Shown: piece by piece, positions 5,379-17,296 of the stretch
Layout of the letters: the number at the start of each line of letters is the position of its first letter
How positions within the stretch are numbered: the stretch's first letter is position 1
Source: Oopsacas minuta
Lineage: Eukaryota > Animalia > Porifera
Assembly: GCA_024704765.1 (NCBI GenBank)
Contig: JAKMXF010000210.1
Location: 656,121-720,120 of the forward strand
DNA length: 64,000 nt
Reading direction: 5' to 3'
Made by a program: the position numbers and the translations under genes
Notes under the pieces: generated by a model
Told to the model about the DNA's origin: nothing
Database searches by the model: none
The model's input: only the letters and a program-made list of their open reading frames with translations

Positions 5379-8300
5379 ATGATGGGCCAAAGCTCGAGGC
5401 CTGTCTCCCCCCCGGGGAAGAAACACACCCCCAGACAACCCTTTAACCCAGCCGTACAAAGACCCAACCAAATAAATAAGCACCTAAAACCGCAAAAAAA
5501 TCCAGAGAACAAACCTCGGCCAATTAACCCATACCCATTGCATAATTCAGGTAAACATGGATCACGTACATTTCTTTCCAGTTCCAGTCCTAACACTAAT
5601 TCACATACACACAAGAACGGTTCAATCAGTAGGAAGACTAAGTACGATACTCCAACCACTCTGCAGGATAGCAGTACTGATATTAAGATGAAGAAGCCTA
5701 TAAACAACACAGCTCCTATGTTCCCTAAGAGACCGGATAAAGTCAGGAAAGAAGAACACAACATGAACTCTAAGAAACTTCTTCATTCTGATACAGTCAA
5801 TAGCTCTAGACCTGTGAATGGAGAACATCTGGATTTCTCTCAAAAGATATCTCCCAAAGAAGATACTAAAACAGCTACAATCCTTCCGGCACGTGTCTTA
5901 AAGCCTCCTAGTGACAAACCTCGTCCCCCTACCAACAAGAATCCTGAAGAGTTCACTTCTAAGAACAACCAAGTTCCTAATCTAGACCTATCATTATCTT
6001 TAAATAGGTCGAATTTACATGACGATAGTTTCAATGACATATTCGCTATTGGTAAGATTATTTTATTATTCTTATTAGTGATAATGCTTATCTAAAATCG
6101 TATGGTGTGTCTAGGGATGGAGCCTCTCCCCACCCCCCTCACTGAGATACAGACACCAGTTGGTAACAAGAAGTTCCTAGCTTTCCTTTCTAACCAGACT
6201 AAACCACGTTTAGATCTACCGCAGCAAAAAGAAGCTAATTCTAATCGTTTGTTTACTGAGAAAGTAGTAGAGCAGAATAGCTCTGATTCAGAGGATAGCT
6301 CAGACAGTGATTCAGAGCATGAACACAATCATGATCAGGGGACAACTAGTAGCAGACGTGGTGATGTAAGTATATTATTATTATTTATTTGAGGAGAGAG
6401 AGAGAGAGAGAGAGCACGGCATTGATTAGCTAGTTTCTGTTGTGTAGAACTTTCTAGACATTATTGTGAGTTCAGATTCTGAGAGCAGTGATTCCTCACC
6501 GATTCAAGCCCCCTCTTACACCAACACAGAGGACATATTCATGTCTATTCCTCCAAAAAGAGTGGATATGATAACTGAGCCAGCTCCTGTACACAACAGA
6601 GGTTGGGAGTCTAGTCCTTCTTCTGACAGCTCCAATGGAGATAGCAATATCCACTCTTGGAATAAAATGAATATTACATCTAATCACAAGTAAGGCTATT
6701 AGATTCCCTCTTCCCTTTATTTGCTGTGTATTTCATCTACTGGTACAAAATTGCTCCTTTGAATATATTCAAGTTGCAAGACAGTCTTTTAATCGCTAAT
6801 TACTGCGTACATTATTCTAAATAATTAATATACCTAATCTTACTCCTGAGTGTAGCTACGTATCACATGTACCTAAATATTTACAAGTATTTCATTAATT
6901 GGTCTCTTTCTGTTTCAGAACTGAGTGCCCTTATTGGGACTCTCATCGTTCTACCTCTCCTCCTCGTGACTTGAATCCTCGTCTCAATGCCACCTCAGAA
7001 CCAGTCATGCATCTCAAAAGCTCAATGGTAAGATAATCATATATGTGTATACATGCTGTAATATATGATAATTTATACGCCTCAGCTAATCATTACAGAC
7101 AAATTTAATAATTATCTGCGTAATTCTATAAACAAGCAATCTTTGTTTACTACAACAACAAGATCTAATTTGATCTAGTATAATTTTATGACTGTACACA
7201 ACTATATTGTTACAAGACAACATTGAAAAGAATAACTACACTATTGTGTTATATCATAAACAATACACACTACAGAGTTTAGTATATTGTTTGTTCTACA
7301 GCCACGGAGTAGAGAGATGTCTCATGATTCCGATTCAAATTCCCCGAAACGATTGAAGATTTCAATCTCCTTAGATAAGATTGCAATACTTGACAAGGTC
7401 AAGCCTCTAATTGTTAGCTTCCCTAGAGTGAAAATCTCTCTCCCTGGAGATAAGCCCCCTGAGAGTAGCAAGCAGATGGCACGTGTTCAACCTATCCAGA
7501 GACTTCCTGACTCTGGAAAGGATATGTCTATTCCTCCAACTTATAGCTGTCCACATAGGTAACTAATGAACATACTAAGCACATAACCTCTTTATTTATT
7601 TAAGTTATATCAAATATTTGTATCTTGTATTACAAACATATAAAGATGCTAATCTTATTCTATATAGAGTAGCAGAAGTACAGCCTCAGAAAAAGATACC
7701 TCACAAAGGTGCTCGAAACATGATCAATTCTCCAGATATGTCCTGGCACATGGATGCCTGCTATGAACCCCCTGTCTCTAGTACTATGATCCCACCCACT
7801 CAAAGCTCTGCTGATGACAGATGGGGTACCAGCAGTCACACTGGCGTATCGTATCCCTCTAAAATAGCACGTCCCTCTACCTCTCATGACTATCTCACGG
7901 TTAGTATTACGATTATATTCACCAGATTTGTTGTTTTAGCTAGATACTTTTTAGGAGGCTAAAGGTCTGAAACATCAAGCAGACCATTTCAAATGTAGCT
8001 ACAAGAAAGCGCTATTCTACTGTGAAGCAGCACTCAGCTTCATGCTATACGGAGATCAGCTGGAGGACAAGACTGAGGCTATTCCTACTTACTCAGATAC
8101 ATTTGATCTGCTAGAGTTTGTATTGAGACCTGCTAGCAGTAGCGGGGGTGGACTAGGATTCTCTAGCTCTAAACAAAGTCCTCAGCTGATTACTATCTGT
8201 ATGAGATGTCAAGCAGTTATTCTCAATAGAATATTCGTTATTAAGCAGGATTCATTAAGGAGCACACACAAGGAGCTACACGAGTTCTTTAGCGTTTATA

Positions 8301-8678
8301 AATCGGACACCAAAGCTAAGACCCCTCTGTCAAACAAATCTCCATATGCCTCTTCCTGGTCTCCCACTAACATGGTACAAGTTCCCCAGAAGATCGCTAC
8401 TATGAACTCGGACTATCTCCAGGTAATTATTGACTATATAGATAACTACCATGCTGATGTGCTAGTGTAATTTATCCTGCTTTATTCAGGTTCTGGAGTA
8501 TCAATTCAATAGCTTAGAGTTATGGAACAAATCACAACTATACGAAGACGATGTACTTCCATTTATTCAAAGCCTCAACAACTCTGTTGGCAAATCAGTA
8601 GAGATTTACAGCTCCATTAAAGATATTACGACTTGGTGTAAAACCGGTTTACATTGGTTAAGGAAAGATCAGACGTGA
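5379..8678 (+). CDS. AF4/FMR2 (AFF, lilliputian) family protein, 8 exons (about 5379..6052, 6115..6365, 6466..6690, 6919..7028, 7302..7558, 7668..7899, 7955..8422, 8490..8678)
   Basis: Long Ser/Pro-rich N-terminal half. The C-terminal exons reproduce the AF4 C-terminal homology domain: EAKGLKHQADHF..ALFYCEAALSFMLYG, LITICMRCQAVILNRIFVIKQD, VPQKIATMNSDYLQV and KTGLHWLRKDQT, compared with human AFF4 EAKRLKHNADAL..AVYYLDAVVSFIECG, LTVLCLRCESLL, IPQKIHQMAASYVQV and RQGLHWLRQDAKL. Exon joins are read from GTAAG/GTTAGT donors and pyrimidine-AG acceptors with consistent phase. Confidence 0.7.
6391..6414. repeat. (GA)n microsatellite in an intron of the AF4-like gene
   Basis: gaggagagagagagagagagagag is read directly. 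Confidence 0.9.
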
Positions 8679-9234
8679 CTTGTGATGTGACTGTGTACAT
8701 ATCCTTATTTTTAAAGCATCCTATTACAACCCTAACCTCTTTTGACGCTTTTAAATATATCAACTCGCTCCAGATATTGTATATTAATTGACCTGCCTAA
8801 TTTTACTATTTTTACTCATCACTCATGAATCTTCCTCGCCCAATCAATAGCCCTTATTAATAAATATCGCATTTGTCGCACTCTATATGCTGGCATAGAA
8901 TATATATATATATTGTATATTACAATTCTTGTGAACGCAAGAACATTTAGAAATCCTCTTGTTATTCTTATCATTATTAATTATTTAGAAATACACCTTG
9001 TTTCAATTATTTGTTATATCGTAAGGGGTGGGACATGGTTCATGAGTACCTCTATTGAGACTTTACATTATACCCATGATGACCATACATGGTGAACTAT
9101 AAGCATTATCAGCGATTATATTATGGGAAATTGAGGGGATTTGTATCTCCTTACAAGGCATTAATTATTCTATAATTACAATTAGCAATTAGTAATCATA
9201 ATCACAACTTTATAACATCTAACAGATATTTATC

Positions 9235-9837
9235 ATGCGATATTATTTGCTACTATGCTTGCTATGTGTACTGACCTATCGAGTCTTATCACATTCGTGT
9301 AATTCTGCTCAACAATGTACAGCTACATCCTTAGTACAAAACAGCTTTCTTGTTCAATGTATTGATAATCAATGCGTTTGCGAGAGCGATTGTTTCTTCT
9401 ATGATTTTTATGTTAGAGGCAACATAACAGACACTTGTATCATAAATTCAGTCTGCTACTCATATTCCTCAGAGAATGATACCTGTTATCTTATCACTAA
9501 GTCTGCTAACAGTGCTGTCATATACGCACTATTCCTCGGCTATGTGGGTGGTGCTAACTATTATATAGGTCGTTATGATCAAGCAATAATACAAACTATA
9601 TTATTTCTTATTTTAGTCCCATTCTCTCTACTGTTATGTGCTCTTAACGTTTATTGTTGTAGAGGTCACAAACGAAGATCCTCTTTAACTATTCGTTGGT
9701 TTATCTGTAATTGTATCGGGGTAGTTATTGTTGTGCTACTGAGTGTAGTACTGTTCATTTGGTGGATTGTGGATATATTTCTGTTTGCTAACAATATGAA
9801 GCTGGACGGCAATCAATGCTCTCTCTCAGTCAGCTGA
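9235..9837 (+). CDS. TM2 domain-containing protein (TM2D family)
   Basis: Signal peptide, a Cys-rich ectodomain, then LGYVGGANYYIGRYDQAIIQ (the TM2 Gx3Gx3..Q signature between two TM helices), and a second TM helix. Confidence 0.6.
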   Translation: MRYYLLLCLLCVLTYRVLSHSCNSAQQCTATSLVQNSFLVQCIDNQCVCESDCFFYDFYVRGNITDTCIINSVCYSYSSENDTCYLITKSANSAVIYALFLGYVGGANYYIGRYDQAIIQTILFLILVPFSLLLCALNVYCCRGHKRRSSLTIRWFICNCIGVVIVVLLSVVLFIWWIVDIFLFANNMKLDGNQCSLSVS

Positions 9838-10092
9838 GAGCCCTGTTATTTTTGAAGCAACTCTAGTAATATTTGTGATAATACGTATATATTGTTTTGC
9901 TCTGTAATTATACAGTATTAGTAGCAGCGGAATAAGAAGCCATAATTAATAGTATCACTATATAACTTGCTATGTCATTTGCTTAGTCATTTTGCTGACT
10001 GTAATAATAATAATACATCAAAGGAAGCTGTATATAATTATAACATATAGAGGAAATTTATGGCATAATATTATATCCGTCAATAGCTTGAC

Positions 10093-10674
10093 ATGTCAAT
10101 TGACACATCTCCTAACCTTATGACAGAATCAGCATCTACTCAACCTCCAGAAGATGCCGCTACCTTAGAGATCAAACAGAAGATGTTGTCAAACTTCTCA
10201 GTGTTTGATCACGAGAATACCAAGACTGTAGATGTTAGTGAGGTGAGGGCTATCGTAGCCTCTCTGGAGCTGTACCCCACTCAGACAGAGCTACACGATC
10301 TGATAACTGAGATGGAGGAGGAGGAACCTACTGGTTACATACGGTATGATAGGTTTGAACCAGTAAGTGCATTAGCCATATAAATGATTGGGTAATATAC
10401 TTATAGTGTATTATAGGTAGTGTTTAAAGCTGTAGCAGAGAAGCGCTACTCTCCTGCTAGCGAGGAGATCTTATTGAAAGCATTCGAGACTCTAGACAGA
10501 GATAACAGAGGATATCTAACACCTGAGGATATTGAGGCTTACTTCACTGAGGGGGAAGATTCATTTTCTAAAGAAGAATTAGATGAGTTCTTACACTCAG
10601 CAATAGATCCTAATACTGGGAATATTAACTACAGAGATTTTGTACAATCAATGCTAGAACAGGATTCTAACTAA
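10093..10674 (+). CDS. EF-hand calcium-binding protein (calmodulin-like, EFCAB2/DRC8-like), 2 exons (10093..10362, 10417..10674)
   Basis: Canonical EF-hand loop DRDNRGYLTPEDIEAYF and a second degenerate loop DPNTGNINYRDF. CCA|GTAAGT donor and tatag acceptor, phase 0. Confidence 0.6.
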
Positions 10675-10775
10675 CAGCCTAATCACTCAGTATATTACTA
10701 TTAATAACTACACAATGTATAACCTTATTACTAAATGTTATTATGATATTCGTTAGCTGATTGAAATGCTTTAGA

Positions 10776-13700
10776 ATGGATGATAAATCTCGGAGTGATA
10801 ATAAGAACGATAACTTTAAAGTGGGTCTACGAGTTAGACCCCCTCTAACCAAGGAGTCCAATAGCAAAAGATGTGTGCATCTGGAGCATGGAGGTGTGTC
10901 TGTATTCAGAGGGAACCTGGGATTAGACCTGAGAGGCAGGTCTCCTCAAGCTCTCATTGACGTCACTGACTTAGCAAATCTACAACCTGACCCTAAGCCT
11001 CAGACATTCTTCTATGATAGTTTGTTTGATATAACAGCATTACAGGTATAATAACCGCTATATTATAGCTATACTAGTGTTATCTATTATTAATTGTAGG
11101 AAGAAGTGTATGATACTTGTGCTCAGCCTATTGTCCTATCAGTACTGGAGGGATACAATGGTAGTGTTATAGCATACGGACAGACTGGTACTGGTAAGAC
11201 ACACACGATAGAAGGGACATATAGTGAGGAGGGGAGAGGCCTGATCCCTAGGTGTTCTGAGGAGATATTTCATTTTATTCAGAATAAAGCTGACTCGGAT
11301 TCTAAGTTCTTAGTAAGTTATCTAAACAAATAATAAAGAACAAACAATTCTATTATTTATTGGTGCTTTCAACTGGCTTCTTCTTGGCGGTGAGCAATAC
11401 TCCCGCTACTATAACGAACACTGTAAATCCCTGAGCTGCTACACGGGCCCGCATCATCAAATTTGACTTTCTTTGATCACCTTTAACGAACTGATATAAT
11501 CCATAAGAAAGTGCTGCTACTGTCAGTCCACATCCCAGAGGTACGAAGGGGTTTTCCTTGAGTTTCCTCCAGAGCTTCTCTCTCCTGGTCTCGGGTCCTG
11601 AGTAGATATATTCAGACAGCTGATCAGCAGTTATCTTATCTGAACTCATAGCTAAATAATAAATAGAAATTAGTTTATCAACCATAGATAAGAACTATAA
11701 ATTATAGGTACGGGTCTCCTTCTTGGAAATTTATAACGAGCGTCTATTTGACCTACTGGATCCATCTCATGAAAAGCTACGAGTACGCGAGGACGGCTCC
11801 AGCTGTACGTTTGTAGAGGGACTGAGTGAACACGTGGTTAAAGGGACCATGGATGTGAACAGACTTCTCAGGAAGGGATCAACAGCTCGTATAACAGATG
11901 GTTCTAAAATGAACAAAGAGAGTAGTCGCAGTCATGCTGTATTCACAATAGTGATAGAGCGATCTGGCGGATCATACAGGAGTAGAGTAACTATTGGGAA
12001 ATTACGCTTGGTTGATTTAGCTGGCTCTGAGAGGTGAGAATTGCCGCGAAATAACGCATAGTAATTCAGTTAATTCCCTCCTAATAGATTTGATATAGAA
12101 GCAAAAGACAAACATTTAACAGAGACTAAGAACATCAATACATCTCTCACAACATTCGGTAAAGTAGTTCTAGCCCTGACTAGCTCTGGATATCACTCCT
12201 ACATACCGTACAGAGACAGTAAGCTGACTAGGATCCTACAGGACTCCCTGGGTGGTAACAGCAAGGCCTTCTTAGTATGTACAGTCAGTCCTATGACAGA
12301 TTGCTATCTGGAGACCTTAAGTACTCTAAAATTCGCTCAGCGAGCTAAACATATACAGAATAAAGCTATTGTGAATCAGGACTTTACGAAGAAGGCAATG
12401 CTCTCTGCCTACGAGAAGGAGATAGCTCGTCTACACAAGGAACTGATCGAGAGCAGAGAGGGATGGGTATCTGCTGGGGAGTTAGAGAGAGTTAAAGAGG
12501 AGAAAGAGAGAGTTGAGTTAGAAAGAGAGGAGGTTATGCATATGCTGGCTAGACAGAACGAGCAGAGTAATCTGAAGGAAGATGAGAGAGAGAGTCTTGA
12601 GAAAAAGATACAGGAATTAGAGCTTCTTGTACTTAAGGTAATATATATCATATAATATAATATATTATTAGTTAAATATTCTTGTTCAGGGTGGTGATAA
12701 GTCTAAAGGGTCGTTAATAACTCCTGAAAGAGAGCTAGTCGATCAGAGACAAGCTCTAGAAGCAGAAAGGAAGAGATTAGAGGACGAGAGGATAGCATTT
12801 AAGCAAGAGAAAGATTCTTTCTTGAGAGCAAGAACAGCTCCTGACGGACAGACGGGATCTGATGAGGAAAATACCGACATGACGTCACCATATCGTCGAC
12901 GTGCTGGCAGTATAAGTTCATCAATCAGTTCATTACGTACTGGTCAGAACACACCAATTATGAGACAGTCTAGATGGTCTCAAAACTACGCGTCTATGTA
13001 TCCAGCTGGTCCTGTAATAGGTAGGAGTCACCAAGGATGGGTAGGATATCCTGTAAGTTATCATTAATGCTTATACATTACTCATTCTATTGATTATTAA
13101 CTTTATAGCAGCAAAGAAGCTCTGTAACAGCTCTCTTAGACGCATCGTACAGGAAGTCTCTTATCACATACGTCACTGCTCTGGCTAATCCTAAGACAGG
13201 AATTCCGTGTAAACAGTTCGATAATGGTTTGTCTGTGTTCTCAGGCAGTCATGCAGTCAAATGGTTCATGGATAATATGGATGGAGTAGGTAGTGTAAAT
13301 GCTGCTGCTGACGTAGGACAGAAGTTAATGAATCTACAGGTAATATCCCTGTTCCATTAATTCATAAATAATTATTACTTATAACAATTGTATAGGTGTT
13401 TATTAGCATGGACGGGACTCTACACTTCCTTCCTTCAGACACCAATTACTACAGATTCTCTCCTGAGTATATTCCTATTCATTCATCCTATCCTAGCAGA
13501 GAGAGTATACACTCAATAGACAGACCTATCTCCTCAGCTGTTCCTTCTATCAGGTCTAATAAATCCAGGAGCTTATCACCTGAATCCTATCCTCTGTCAA
13601 ATATGACATCTGACAACCTATCAACTAACACATACAGTCTCTTGTCTGATACGTCTTCTATTAGTAGTTACTCCTCCATGTCCTCAGCTACCAGGATACC

Positions 13701-16044
13701 TCTAATTGACAGACTGGGTTGGTCTAGTGCCTCTCTTCTACACATGACAGCTTCTCAAGTAAGTACTCTCCTCTATTGGATATATACTAATTGTTATATC
13801 TATATGTGTGTAGGGTAACCGGAGTCTCTTAAAGAGGTTAGTAGCTACACAGAACGTGAATGAGCTGGATACAGAGAACAGATCTGCTCTTATGTATGCT
13901 TGTGTGGGAGATCAGCTAAAGGCTGCTGAGATATTAATTAAGAAAGGAGCTAATACTAACTTAGTAGATAAGGCAGGTAACTCTGCTCTAATCTATGCTG
14001 TACAGTTCGGGAGAGATCAGGTTTGTTATTCTGTTTGATGCTCCAAATATTCTTTATAGCTTGTATTAGCTAGTTAAACTATTATTGAAGTCATCAGCTG
14101 ATTCATCTCTCAAGAATAAAGAGGGGAAGAATGCTATTCACATATGTGCAGAGATAGAAGAGAGTCTCAGATGTTTGGAGTTCTTATGCAAGTAATTATT
14201 ATTCAGACATATAACTTGTAATAGTCATTCTATACATATCATATATGTATTCTACAGACATTCTAGTGTAAATAGAGCTGTTAACGAGAGAGACGGTCGT
14301 ATGCAGTCTCCTCTACATATCAGTGTATTTGCTAACCTCCCTCAACACACCAGGATGCTACTAGTAGCTAGAGCTAAGCTGTGTATCAGTGATGCTGAGG
14401 GTAGGACCCCTCTACACTATGCTATTACAGCTAATTCTCTAATATGTCTTCAAATCATACTAGAGGTTGTTAATAATATTATAACTAGTAATTACATTCT
14501 CTTTGAATCTGGTTTCTCTATTGAATTTCAGAGTATTCTCATAACATGCATGTTACCTACGTAATAGACATAATTATATTAATAATCAGTTCAGAGCACT
14601 TAGAGGAGTCCAAGTTGTCGGATAGCCTTGAACTGGTCTGGAATCTCCATGAGGGCGTGGAGTGCAAAGTTCACTTCAGGGAAGTCTTGACCCTGAGTGA
14701 CCTTGTGGAAGTTCACAAATTGGAAATTATCAAAAGTTCTCTCTTTAATTCTGTCATCAAAATCCTCCATCGTATCCCATGGTCCATCTCCTACTCCTAC
14801 CATAACTATAGATAGCGGATACTTAGAAGCTCGTATTATTGCCGCGATAGTGTCTGCTTCATTTGTTACTTGTCCGTCCGCTATAATCACCAGGATATGA
14901 TATGACGTCATACTCCTAACTATCTCTATTGCTTTGTCAATGAGAGGCGCAAAGTTGGTGGGACCAGAGAGGGTAATGTGTGGAGTAATCTGCTCGTAGA
15001 TCTTCAAAGTGTCACTCACTCCGTTACACATTCCTCCATCTGTCTTGATGTTAAATACATTATTTCCTTTTGTTCTAGAATCCCCGAAACCATAAACAGG
15101 TATCATATTATCGTCATCAAATGGTTCTAGCACTAATCCTAGAGTCCGTATAACTTTCTGATATGGGTTGAGGAGAGGAGGGACTAATGCGTGTAGAGAG
15201 TGTCCTCCAAAGGTCTGCTCCCCTTGTGTGTTGTTACTACGTGTATAGTCTATACCAAATATCAGCTGACTAGACTCTAAGCCCGCCTTACGCATGCTAG
15301 CTTGTAAATCCTCAAAACTTCTGTATTTGTCCTGGATCGTTAGAAGAGTGGGTGTAGATTGTTTAGGGGGTTGTTTCTTCTTCTTCTTGTTAGCAGTCAC
15401 CAGATACACAATGAATAGAATTAATACGATTATCAGTAGTGTGTCCATGCTTGTATGCTGTAGAATATTTGTTATTATACTTTAGAGTCTGATTGCTATT
15501 GTATAGTCACACACTCCTATATATTAACATGTTACAGTATGTGTTTATGCCTAATGTAGTAATTCAAGTCAGGATTATTGTCAATGATTGAATGTAGTAA
15601 TTCAAGTCAGGAGTATAGTCAATGATTGAATGTAGTTTCGTCATTTATTTACTTAATAGTTAAATAGTTTGTACATTTATTTGTTAGAATTGTGGAAGAG
15701 ATGTAAATATTCCTGATACATCTGGGTGGTCTCCTCTACATCTTGCCTGTCATGACGGTACATCAGAATCTGTACAGCTGTTGATATCTTCCAAATATTG
15801 TGATGTCAATCTGTTAGACTTACACTCTGCTTCTCCTCTACACAATTGTGTGTTTGCTAATCGTCCTGACCTCATCAAGAAACTAATAGAGGCTGGAGCT
15901 AACCCTAACTGTCAGGACAAATCTAAGAGAGCTCCCTTACACTATGCCATAGAGAGGGGGTACACTGAATGTGCTCACATGTTACAGAAGAGTAACACAC
16001 CCCTCAAGGGCAAGACCCTGCTACACAACTTAAGAAATCTTTAG
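10776..16044 (+). CDS. Kinesin motor protein whose downstream exons encode coiled coil, a DEP domain and ankyrin repeats. About 12 exons; approximate exon list: 10776..11046, 11100..11312, 11713..12033, 12088..12651, 12687..13058, 13108..13339, 13396..13758, 13814..14010, 14091..14191, 14258..14463, 15688..16044
   Basis: Motor motifs [22 protein letters not shown] (P-loop), SSRSHAVF (switch I), LVDLAGSER (switch II), VSFLEIYNE and [23 protein letters not shown]. These are followed by the coiled coil [15 protein letters not shown].... The DEP core [31 protein letters not shown] is split by an intron. ANK repeats follow ([50 protein letters not shown]). Every junction has a GT donor and AG acceptor with consistent phase, and there is no in-frame stop between the motor and the DEP/ANK exons. 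Whether this is one transcript is inferred. Confidence 0.5.
11353..11685 (-). CDS. HIG1 domain protein (HIGD1/2-like), complete 110-aa ORF nested antisense inside kinesin intron 11313..11712
   Basis: [44 protein letters not shown] matches the HIGD1A consensus PFVPVGIAGFAAIVAYGLYKLK..MRVAAQGFVV. ATG start. Two TM helices. Confidence 0.75.
   Translation of the reverse strand: MVDKLISIYYLAMSSDKITADQLSEYIYSGPETRREKLWRKLKENPFVPLGCGLTVAALSYGLYQFVKGDQRKSNLMMRARVAAQGFTVFVIVAGVLLTAKKKPVESTNK
14600..15448 (-). CDS. Copine-like vWA-domain protein with N-terminal TM anchor (no C2 domains), nested antisense in a 1.2 kb intron of the ANK-repeat exons
   Basis: The N-terminal hydrophobic anchor is followed by a KKKKK stretch. 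The vWA/copine core reads [97 protein letters not shown] and aligns to the copine C-terminal A-domain consensus (NPY..A..VG..YD.D..FPAFGFG, LLIITDG..D, SIIIVGVG). Confidence 0.7.
   Translation of the reverse strand: MDTLLIIVLILFIVYLVTANKKKKKQPPKQSTPTLLTIQDKYRSFEDLQASMRKAGLESSQLIFGIDYTRSNNTQGEQTFGGHSLHALVPPLLNPYQKVIRTLGLVLEPFDDDNMIPVYGFGDSRTKGNNVFNIKTDGGMCNGVSDTLKIYEQITPHITLSGPTNFAPLIDKAIEIVRSMTSYHILVIIADGQVTNEADTIAAIIRASKYPLSIVMVGVGDGPWDTMEDFDDRIKERTFDNFQFVNFHKVTQGQDFPEVNFALHALMEIPDQFKAIRQLGLL
15552..15638. repeat. About 38-bp tandem duplication (2.3 copies) in the intron between the copine-like gene and the downstream ANK exon
   Basis: aatgtagtaattcaagtcaggattattgtcaatgattg is repeated as aatgtagtaattcaagtcaggagtatagtcaatgattg, then aatgtagtt. 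Confidence 0.85.
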
Positions 16045-16235: not shown

Positions 16236-16706
16236 CTATTCTGTTATTTGGTTGACGGAATCAGTGATCTTAACAATATCGTCTAGTATGATAGACATCG
16301 CTACAATTAGAGCTCCTATTGCTAGTAGTATCGTGATCAGGGAAGATACTATAGCAGTGTAGGAGATTATCTTTAATATCTTGGCCCAGTAATGTGTGTT
16401 CTCTGAGTCTTTTTTGTTTTCGCTTGATCGCACTAGAAATGCTGCAATGATAGAGAATATCCCCAGACAGGGACAAGCTATACAAGCTGATATAGACAGT
16501 ATCCATACCCAGGGACCAGCAGCTGCTCCCATCCCCACATCGTATAGGTTAGGTGGTAGCATCGTGGGTTGATCCATGGTAAGCACAACTCCCGGATACA
16601 TAGCTGACTCTAGGTCAGGGTACTGTAAGGCTGGAGCTGAGGGTCCCGGTGAGGTGTGGTATTCTCCTTCATAGCCGAAAGCCTCTCTCTCTTTTTCTGT
16701 AGCCAT
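16236..16706 (-). CDS. CD225/dispanin family small membrane protein (copy B), start at MATEKE
   Basis: N-terminal Pro/Tyr-rich tail, then the two-helix CD225 core WVWILSISACIACPCLGIFSIIAAFLVRSSENKKD...TAIVSSLITILLAIGALIVAM. The track's start at 16865 is a GTG that overlaps the stop of copy A. Confidence 0.55.
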   Translation of the reverse strand: MATEKEREAFGYEGEYHTSPGPSAPALQYPDLESAMYPGVVLTMDQPTMLPPNLYDVGMGAAAGPWVWILSISACIACPCLGIFSIIAAFLVRSSENKKDSENTHYWAKILKIISYTAIVSSLITILLAIGALIVAMSIILDDIVKITDSVNQITE

Positions 16707-16861
16707 TAAGCTAACAATAGGTAATGAATTGATTAAAGAATACATTGTGTGGCGGTAATACAGTGTATCCCTTAATCCCTTATATGTAGAGTTCTTGTGC
16801 AATCTCTCTTTAATTGAAATGAAACACATCGTAACAAGGGCATGAAGCTTACCTGTAATAC

Positions 16862-17296
16862 TCACTGATCATTATACACTAAGTTTCGTAGTATAAAAAC
16901 TATTACAATCACTGCTATTAGACTGAAACATGCTGTGTACAGCACTGTACCCGTTACTATTGCTACTAGAGCAAATCCACGTCCGTACTTGACTTTTCTA
17001 TTTGTTTCGATTGTTTTGCCTTCTTCTGCGTCTTTGCAGGCTGAGAATGTGAAAATGATAGATGGAATTCCACAGGCTAGACAGCACACGAATGAGATGC
17101 TGGAGAGAATCCAGTCCAGAGTCTTAACTTGAGGTACCTTCTTCTGACGAAAATCGCTCAATCTTACAGCTGCTTCCTGTTGAGCTTTATAAGGATTGGT
17201 GTTTGGAGTGAATCCGTTGTCTTCGTATATCTCATATGGAGGAGGCAATGGGCACTCTTTGTTTGAATATTCGTCCAATTGCAATTCAGTATTCAT
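16862..17296 (-). CDS. CD225/dispanin family small membrane protein (copy A)
   Basis: MNTELQLDEY..PPPYEIY (PPxY) followed by WILSSISFVCCLACGIPSIIFTFSACKD...GFALVAIVTGTVLYTACFSLIAVIVIVF. This matches the IFITM/PRRT-type topology. Confidence 0.6.
   Translation of the reverse strand: MNTELQLDEYSNKECPLPPPYEIYEDNGFTPNTNPYKAQQEAAVRLSDFRQKKVPQVKTLDWILSSISFVCCLACGIPSIIFTFSACKDAEEGKTIETNRKVKYGRGFALVAIVTGTVLYTACFSLIAVIVIVFILRNLVYNDQ

Follow-up and report, generated by a model that had tools for sequence, protein, structure and literature searches.

The last eukaryotic common ancestor has been inferred to possess 11 kinesin paralogs, of which Kinesin-17 is one. This family was without published functional data as of 2010, and was predicted to be linked to the cilium or flagellum because its occurrence was confined to cilium-building organisms (Wickstead, Gull & Richards 2010, PMC2867816). 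That survey, which covered 45 genomes and no sponge, recorded the combination of a kinesin motor (KISc), a DEP domain, and ankyrin (ANK) repeats in one organism only. Indeed, Monbr_28628 (MONBRDRAFT_28628) of the choanoflagellate Monosiga brevicollis is listed in its supplementary file 3 as a Kinesin-17 with the architecture KISc-DEP-ANKx6, an assignment that stems from a published Bayesian phylogeny (PMC2867816). Later functional data on Kinesin-17 were not found in the literature searched, and a paper of 2018 cites only the ciliary prediction of 2010 for this family. The locus described here lies in a stretch of 64,000 nucleotides (nt) of the genome of the hexactinellid sponge Oopsacas minuta (assembly GCA_024704765.1, contig JAKMXF010000210.1, positions 656,121 to 720,120 of the forward strand; hereafter the window). 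With a probability of roughly 0.9, window positions 10776-16044 (+ strand) represent a single protein-coding gene of O. minuta for a holozoan-type motor of the Kinesin-17 family, with a DEP domain and ANK repeats in its tail. An earlier, sequence-only reading of the window had offered a novel architecture as one of two options, which cannot be maintained, as it has been on record since 2010 for the Kinesin-17 of Monosiga and is also present in deposited sponge models. Its remark that no animal kinesin with a DEP-ANK tail has been characterised still holds, in that no functional study was found in the literature searched; neither was a descriptive paper on the conservation of DEP-ANK kinesins across Porifera. 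With architecture and family already on record, and the Oopsacas protein deposited, the new element is a corrected gene model, and not a new kind of system.

Structure of the gene and domains of its product

Eleven exons were assembled by hand between positions 10776 and 16044 (+ strand), giving a coding sequence of 3210 nt, a length divisible by three, with a single stop codon (TAG, 16042-16044). The ATG at 10776 is the earliest one downstream of an in-frame stop. All ten introns are of the GT..AG type and measure 54, 395, 54, 52, 56, 56, 55, 49, 66, and 1222 nt, in a window that is AT-rich (36-43% GC) and of very high gene density. The spliced product of 1069 amino acids (aa) consists of a kinesin motor, a coiled-coil stalk, a Ser-rich linker, a DEP domain, a second Ser-rich linker, and nine ANK repeats. 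The earlier proposal of an exon chain that stays open from kinesin to DEP and ANK through GT/AG junctions was thus borne out. Furthermore, three sponge orthologs were collinear on the window in tblastn searches (motor, 10803-12634; DEP, 13127-13345; ANK, 13814-14483; C-terminal ANK, 15700-15993).

The N-terminal part of the motor is encoded by exon 1 (10776..11045; aa 1-90), which carries the ATG, is alignable at its N-terminus with the orthologs, and is identical in the deposited protein KAI6655252.1. Exon 2 (11100..11312; aa 91-161), in phase 0 at both ends, contributes the P-loop (GQTGTGKT). Exon 3 (11708..12033; aa 162-269) contains the switch I (SSRSH) and switch II (DLAGSE) motifs, and exon 4 (12088..12637; aa 270-453) the microtubule-binding part of the motor, the neck linker (KNKAIVNQD), and a first coiled-coil segment. 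The Pfam Kinesin match covers aa 19-359 over the full profile (1-327; expect value (E) 3e-104) and ends at window position 12355. The P-loop, both switches, and the microtubule-binding motifs are all intact and their columns, including those of exon 3, are invariant in the family alignment, as befits a member of the kinesin superfamily. Exon 5 (12690..13052; aa 454-574) encodes a second coiled-coil segment, followed by a disordered, Arg/Ser-rich linker ending with ..GWVGYP. The stalk of about 160 residues (aa 360-520) is charged and heptad-like (19% Glu, 19% Lys+Arg, and 11% Leu) and is broken by a Gly hinge (..KGGDKSKGS..). Ser makes up 20% of the first linker, which opens with an RRRAGS motif, and 32% of the second, features that suggest a possible phosphoregulation.

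The DEP domain is shared by two exons. Exon 6 (13109..13339; aa 575-651) completes the first linker and encodes the first two-thirds of the domain, and exon 7 (13396..13758; aa 652-772) encodes its C-terminal strands (to aa 672), followed by the 32%-Ser linker and the beginning of the first ANK repeat. The 56-nt intron that had been reported to interrupt the DEP domain was indeed retrieved, at 13340-13395, between aa 651 and 652. The Pfam DEP match (PF00610; aa 616-672; E 1.6e-8) is marginal for the Oopsacas protein alone (34.8 bits versus a cut-off of 32.7), and most orthologs possess a precomputed PF00610 match. A hidden Markov model (HMM) of the family's own DEP domains reached 114.5 bits on KAI6655252.1, which is identical to the product across this region. 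Because of the marginal Pfam score, the domain was also modelled as a structure (AlphaFold2, aa 580-690, alignment of 26 family sequences). The resulting model (predicted local distance difference test, 89.4; predicted template modelling score, 0.76) displays helices at aa 581-599, 620-630, and 637-649, a hairpin, and C-terminal strands. Its top 48 or so Foldseek matches in the PDB are DEP domains without exception, including those of RGS7, DEPDC5, RGS9, Dishevelled-2, pleckstrin, P-Rex1, Epac2, DEPTOR, and GPR155. According to this model, the domain is a true DEP fold.

The ANK repeats continue in exon 8 (13814..14020; aa 773-841; repeats 1-3, with Pfam Ank_2 at aa 766-856), exon 9 (14070..14191; aa 842-881; repeats 3-4, matching the deposited model), exon 10 (14258..14465; aa 882-951; repeats 4-6), which ends at a weak donor (GTTGTT), and exon 11 (15688..16044; aa 952-1069; repeats 6-9), which carries the stop codon. 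Pfam ANK matches extend from aa 766 to about aa 1050 (Ank_2, E 2e-44; Ank, E 1e-39; Ank_4, E 1e-31; ANK families overall, E 1e-25 to 1e-44). The repeats announced by the sequence-only reading are therefore present, their number being raised from at least five to nine, as counted by eye (aa ~764-1054).

The public model of this gene is KAI6655252.1 (A0AAV7K1X7; 'Kinesin-like protein KIF3A [Oopsacas minuta]'; 983 aa). It is 100% identical to the product where the two are shared and agrees with exons 1-10 throughout, the contested kinesin-to-DEP junction (..GWVGYP|QQRSSVT..) included. The Oopsacas gene models were obtained with BRAKER1/Augustus, making use of RNA-seq intron hints, and were named after their best blastp match (PMC10280926). 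At its 3' end, the public model reads past the GTTGTT donor at 14466, adds 32 extra residues, and stops at 14562-14564, so that exon 11 (118 aa, ANK repeats 6-9) is missing. The join of exons 10 and 11 (..IILE|..) is gapless against every ortholog in the full-length alignment, and the ortholog residues immediately following those that match exon 10 map to 15700-15993 (tblastn). Because of this gapless alignment and contiguous mapping, exon 11 is, on comparative grounds, genuine and the public model needs correcting. The truncation likely occurred because intron 10 (14466..15687) measures 1222 nt and contains a complete gene on the opposite strand; this nested Copine/vWA gene probably caused the early stop of the deposited kinesin model.

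The kinesin-to-DEP junction and the identity of the motor

Whether kinesin and DEP-ANK belong to one fused gene or to two neighbouring ones had been left undecided by the sequence-only reading. The evidence favours one gene, based on the junction in the deposited model, its conservation, transcript open reading frames (ORFs), and the local sequence. Intron 5, which separates kinesin from DEP (13053..13108; 56 nt, GTAAGT...TTTATAG), falls within the short-intron range of the gene (49-66 nt), starts with a perfect GTAAGT donor, ends with an acceptor rich in pyrimidines (..TTTATAG), and contains no AATAAA. The ..QGW.. motif just 5' of the junction has aligned counterparts in the Halichondria ortholog and in P0005, an ortholog from an assembly of SRA runs. 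The order motor-stalk-DEP-ANK is kept in about 40 collinear proteins from sponges and choanoflagellates, which is the arrangement that had been proposed for a search in related genomes, and Pigoraptor displays Kinesin + DEP. In addition, eight sequences could be aligned collinearly over their full length; motor, DEP, and ANK all contain invariant residues, and conserved residues flank the junction. Most choanoflagellate entries and that of Oscarella pearsei represent ORFs marked 'type:complete', each located on one de novo Trinity contig. Similarly, P0005 is an uninterrupted ORF of 3105 nt, with no introns, on two independent 3.2-kb contigs of the SRA-run assembly. The family-built DEP HMM matched all members between motor and ANK, and zero plain Kinesin-17 proteins.

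Two adjacent genes would consist of a tail-less kinesin ending at TAA 13065-13067 (..GYPVSYH) and a separate DEP-ANK protein, whose own first exon was not found. Such a stop does exist, as retention of intron 5 leads in frame into the TAA at 13065-13067; it had been correctly foreseen together with its GYPVSYH end, the GTAAGT donor itself lying at 13053-13058 and not at 13059. Yet only 41 nt separate this stop from exon 6, which is too short for a polyA site, a promoter, a 5' untranslated region, and a start codon. Also, exon 6 offers no start for a DEP-ANK protein of its own, because it has no ATG ahead of the DEP core, the first one coding for the M of W-F-M in the second DEP helix (aa 620-630). 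Stand-alone DEP-ANK proteins elsewhere would lend weight to two genes. A homology search with the tail only (aa 575-1069) was uninformative in this respect, being swamped by generic ankyrin proteins and missing the identical deposited protein, and was replaced by an exhaustive DEP-profile search (2167 matches at E<=1e-3). Among its 141 new cluster representatives, none contained a motor and six contained DEP + ANK only. The single named one is M. brevicollis MONBRDRAFT_32632 (613 aa), which the 2008 annotation of Monosiga places 1.36 kb downstream of a kinesin-only model of 391 aa on the same strand (CH991553.1; models at 6200-8640 and 10001-12262 of the retrieved locus). This pair turned out to be one mis-split gene: one Choanoeca flexa transcript ORF runs collinearly through the two models as well as through stalk exons in the unannotated interval between them (8739-9046), and therefore a single gene was split by the 2008 annotation. 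The other motor-less matches come from contigs of 985-7142 nt and could be partial ORFs, and at least one of them, P0337, starts with stalk-like coiled-coil sequence; the full-length transcript ORFs are all fused. Two adjacent genes are hence highly improbable.

The single gene could give rise to an additional, tail-less isoform, in which intron 5 is retained and a product with motor and stalk only ends four codons into the intron. The in-frame stop 12 nt into intron 5 would allow this, and such an isoform is compatible with the single-gene explanation. However, efficient splicing is expected from the perfect GTAAGT donor and the standard intron size, about 3 kb would lie downstream of the stop in a retained-intron mRNA, and a conserved truncated form was seen in no ortholog, which makes the isoform unlikely, albeit less so than two genes. 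An operon or trans-splicing at acceptor 13108 was considered too and was rejected, as the next Met downstream falls within the DEP fold and the orthologous transcripts are fused.

The 391-aa Monosiga model is probably the 'plain' Kinesin-17 Monbr_25905, and the supposed plain Kinesin-17 of Monosiga may be a second DEP-ANK kinesin paralog. As a separate observation from the DEP-profile search, 112 of the 141 new representatives carry more than one DEP stretch. The strongest matches outside the kinesin family are proteins with five to seven tandem DEP domains, for example a protein of 721 aa with six matched stretches in the alga Chrysoparadoxa australica.

Concerning the family of the motor, Monbr_28628 (P0035) is a collinear ortholog of the sponge protein. 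A neighbour-joining tree was built from 256 ungapped motor columns (300 bootstraps), with Chlre_175469 and Auran_2300 (trimmed motors from the published alignment) as Kinesin-17 references. The DEP-ANK clade received 99% bootstrap, its grouping with plain and reference Kinesin-17, to the exclusion of the outgroups, 97%, and a grouping with KIF3B 0%. This placement in Kinesin-17 agrees with the published Bayesian phylogeny. The best non-DEP matches to the sponge protein came from Paramecium, Andalucia, Chlamydomonas sp., Raphidocelis, and Blepharisma, and were closer to Chlre_175469 (53-67% identity, 352-442 bits) than to KIF3B (286-319 bits). Recognition of the Kinesin-17 family is reportedly also to be attributed to Wickstead & Gull (2006).

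According to its deposited name, 'Kinesin-like protein KIF3A', the protein would instead be the sponge KIF3A, a motor subunit of kinesin-2 in intraflagellar transport. The presence of kinesin-2 structures (OSM-3 and KIF3B) among the top PDB matches fits this name, as would a presumed likeness of the neck to that of kinesin-2. However, the motor scores near-equally, at 241-248 bits, against solved structures of kinesin-1, kinesin-12 (KIF15), and kinesin-2 (KIF3B, KIF3C, and OSM-3), and the tail is DEP-ANK and not the KAP3-binding tail of kinesin-2. Moreover, the name derives from a best blastp match (PMC10280926), and the ortholog of Monosiga is classed as Kinesin-17 in a species with its own Kinesin-2A and 2C genes (PMC2867816). 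A KIF3A identity is consequently very improbable; in view of the tie in PDB scores and the 0% bootstrap with KIF3B, it was rejected.

Distribution, predicted function, and neighbouring genes

Besides the hexactinellid Oopsacas, DEP-ANK kinesins were retrieved from the demosponges Halichondria panicea, Amphimedon queenslandica, and Ephydatia muelleri, the calcareous sponge Sycon ciliatum, and the homoscleromorphs Corticium candelabrum, Oscarella lobularis, and O. pearsei, and hence from all four sponge classes; deposited or RefSeq models of the architecture exist in six sponges. At least 11 choanoflagellate species possess them as well, among which Salpingoeca rosetta, S. kvevrii, S. urceolata, Monosiga brevicollis, Hartaetosiga gracilis, and Didymoeca costata. 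Two DEP-ANK kinesin genes each were found in Corticium and in the choanoflagellates Mylnosiga fluctuans, Choanoeca flexa, and Stephanoeca diplocostata. The filasterean Pigoraptor chileana has a transcript ORF of 975 aa with Kinesin + DEP only, which ranks among the full-architecture members. In both single-sequence and profile searches (best 120 matches each), the named holders of the full architecture were sponges and choanoflagellates only, and no cnidarian, ctenophore, placozoan, or bilaterian member occurred among these matches. In the profile search, the score steps down from 760 to 655 bits between the family and plain protist Kinesin-17. The published kinesin lists contain zero Kinesin-17 for Nematostella, two for Monosiga, and one for Naegleria (PMC2867816). 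Judging from this distribution, the DEP-ANK kinesin was likely lost on the eumetazoan stem.

Two apparent paralog types can be distinguished. Type 1 comprises the proteins of Oopsacas, Sycon, O. pearsei, Amphimedon, and Halichondria. Type 2 comprises those of O. lobularis, Corticium (XP_062517436.1), and a further family member (P0017), which have N- and C-terminal extensions, namely an N-terminal ..LDAGNLxxLV.. and a Pro/Ser-rich C-terminal extension, as well as an insertion after DLLDP. Several orthologs bear misleading names, such as 'KIF3A' (Oopsacas and Sycon), 'KIF11-A' (Amphimedon XP_003386456.2), and 'transcription factor inhibitor ECI-6' (S. rosetta), and the Joint Genome Institute (JGI) names are 'kinesin family protein 3/17' and 'ankyrin repeat protein'. 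In Ephydatia, the NCBI protein KAL5506186.1 (732 aa) stops inside DEP, and Em0002g757a (1076 aa) is full length. For annotation, the outcome is thus an Oopsacas model that is one exon short, a set of misleading ortholog names, and two Monosiga models to be merged.

As to function, the N-terminal position of the motor would, from general knowledge of kinesins, imply plus-end-directed movement, and the stalk would allow dimerisation. Judging from DEP and ANK in characterised proteins, the DEP-ANK tail would form the cargo or targeting end. The DEP domain may dock on a membrane-anchored partner, for instance a receptor or a SNARE-like anchor, as in RGS7/RGS9 and Dishevelled, and the ANK solenoid may bind a protein partner. 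The named holders in the searches, including the plain members, were sponges, choanoflagellates, Pigoraptor, and ciliated or flagellated protists, and the flagellated or ciliated state of these organisms is well established. More specifically, the motor may be imagined to transport or anchor a membrane-associated complex at or in the flagellum or collar apparatus of collar cells, which is the least supported step and a guess. Taken as a whole, it is possible, yet rather doubtful, that the DEP-ANK kinesins form an ancient holozoan Kinesin-17 subfamily of two paralog types that predates the split of filastereans, choanoflagellates, and animals, occurs in every sponge class, was lost on the eumetazoan stem, and provides a motor specific to collar cells, carrying or tethering a membrane complex via its DEP-ANK tail.

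Several points weigh against these interpretations. The claim of a single mRNA in O. minuta rests on an RNA-hinted gene prediction and comparative data, and the junction of exons 5 and 6 lies in a poorly conserved linker, where alignment cannot place it to the residue. The tree was made by a simple distance method, with four outgroup families represented by one sequence each (KIF3B, Neurospora kinesin-1, KIF15, and an Eg5-like protein). For all members, a ciliary or collar function is a prediction only. Finally, the DEP core is neutral to acidic, with a net charge of 0 in Oopsacas and a family mean of -5 (crude charge count), and its hairpin arm is non-basic and four residues shorter in this sponge type; many choanoflagellate members have a basic one (..TKRVRLTSYR..). 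In the DEP domain of Dishevelled, a basic surface or hairpin has been described as the part that binds acidic membranes. Given this non-basic core and sponge hairpin, a protein partner at the membrane would be favoured over plain binding of acidic lipids.

If the wider proposal were true, the DEP-ANK kinesin would provide a molecular marker bearing on the homology of choanocytes and choanoflagellates, and a first functional handle on Kinesin-17. The DEP-ANK form would give this family a recognisable cargo end in sponges and the closest relatives of animals, and its distribution across choanoflagellates, a filasterean, and four sponge classes could interest researchers of animal origins. The S. 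rosetta ortholog (P0025) would make the function testable in this choanoflagellate, provided that the species is genetically tractable.

The window contains further genes in and around the kinesin gene. Intron 2 (11313..11707; 395 nt, GTAAGT..AG) is occupied nearly completely by a whole HIG1-domain (hypoxia-induced protein) gene on the - strand (ORF 11353-11685, with a probable start Met at 11649; Pfam HIG_1_N, E 2.5e-24). The Copine/vWA gene of intron 10 (14600-15448, - strand; Pfam Copine, E 2e-65) is complete in a single exon, and its protein shows, by eye, a stretch of hydrophobic residues at the N-terminus and, after it, a run of Lys. Directly upstream of the kinesin gene, an EF-hand gene of two exons on the same strand (10093-10674, + strand; intron about 10362-10417) ends with a stop about 100 nt ahead of the kinesin ATG. 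Among solved structures, its product is matched best by human Dynein regulatory complex protein 8 (DRC8/EFCAB2, 8j07; E 1e-32, 117 bits, calmodulin reaching about 65). An axonemal gene thus adjoins a predicted ciliary kinesin, which may be a coincidence in a very compact genome. Candidates below the Pfam cut-off are a TM2-domain-like small membrane protein (9235-9837, + strand; 23.7 bits) and two adjacent CD225/dispanin-like ORFs (16236-16865 and 16862-17296, - strand; both about 20 bits).

Comparison with known systems

The sponge protein resembles the Kinesin-2 motors (KIF3A, KIF3B, KIF17, and OSM-3) in its N-terminal motor and hinged coiled-coil stalk, with a motor identity of 45%. It differs from them in belonging to another motor clade and in carrying a DEP domain and ANK repeats where Kinesin-2 has a tail that binds KAP3 or the intraflagellar transport (IFT) machinery. 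Both Kinesin-2 and Kinesin-17 are linked to the cilium by their distribution (PMC2867816). The 'kinesin-17' of later cilia reviews is KIF17, a name clash with a different family.

The DEP domain of the kinesin is matched with a Foldseek probability of 1.0 by those of signalling proteins (RGS7/RGS9, Dishevelled-2, DEPDC5, pleckstrin, P-Rex1, and Epac2), with template modelling scores of 0.54-0.64 on the query and 83-109 aligned columns, whereas the identity amounts to only 15-25%. Among the known DEP proteins, we know of none that is fused to a motor. O. minuta has been reported to be without Wnt, Wntless, and Dishevelled (PMC10280926), and therefore the DEP domain of the kinesin cannot serve canonical Wnt signalling in this species. 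It thus belongs to the DEP domains that remain where the best-known DEP protein is reportedly missing.

Other kinesins with ANK repeats have been described, namely a KISc-ANK protein of Phytophthora sojae and the Kinesin-3D of Monosiga (ANK-kinase-KISc-SAM). They belong to other families, have another domain order, and contain no DEP domain, and such ANK-kinesin combinations were judged non-homologous and convergent (PMC2867816, file 6). Most non-holozoan Kinesin-17 proteins have neither DEP nor ANK. In contrast, Monbr_28628 has the same domain order as the sponge protein and is collinear with it, with 37% identity in the motor region and a score of 854 bits for the Monosiga protein against the family profile. 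The two differ in length (1069 aa in the sponge versus 1270 in Monosiga), the sponge protein being without the motor insertions and long low-complexity linkers of Monosiga, and in the DEP hairpin arm, which is four residues shorter and not basic in the sponge. Both proteins fall into one motor clade, and both organisms have flagellated collar cells.

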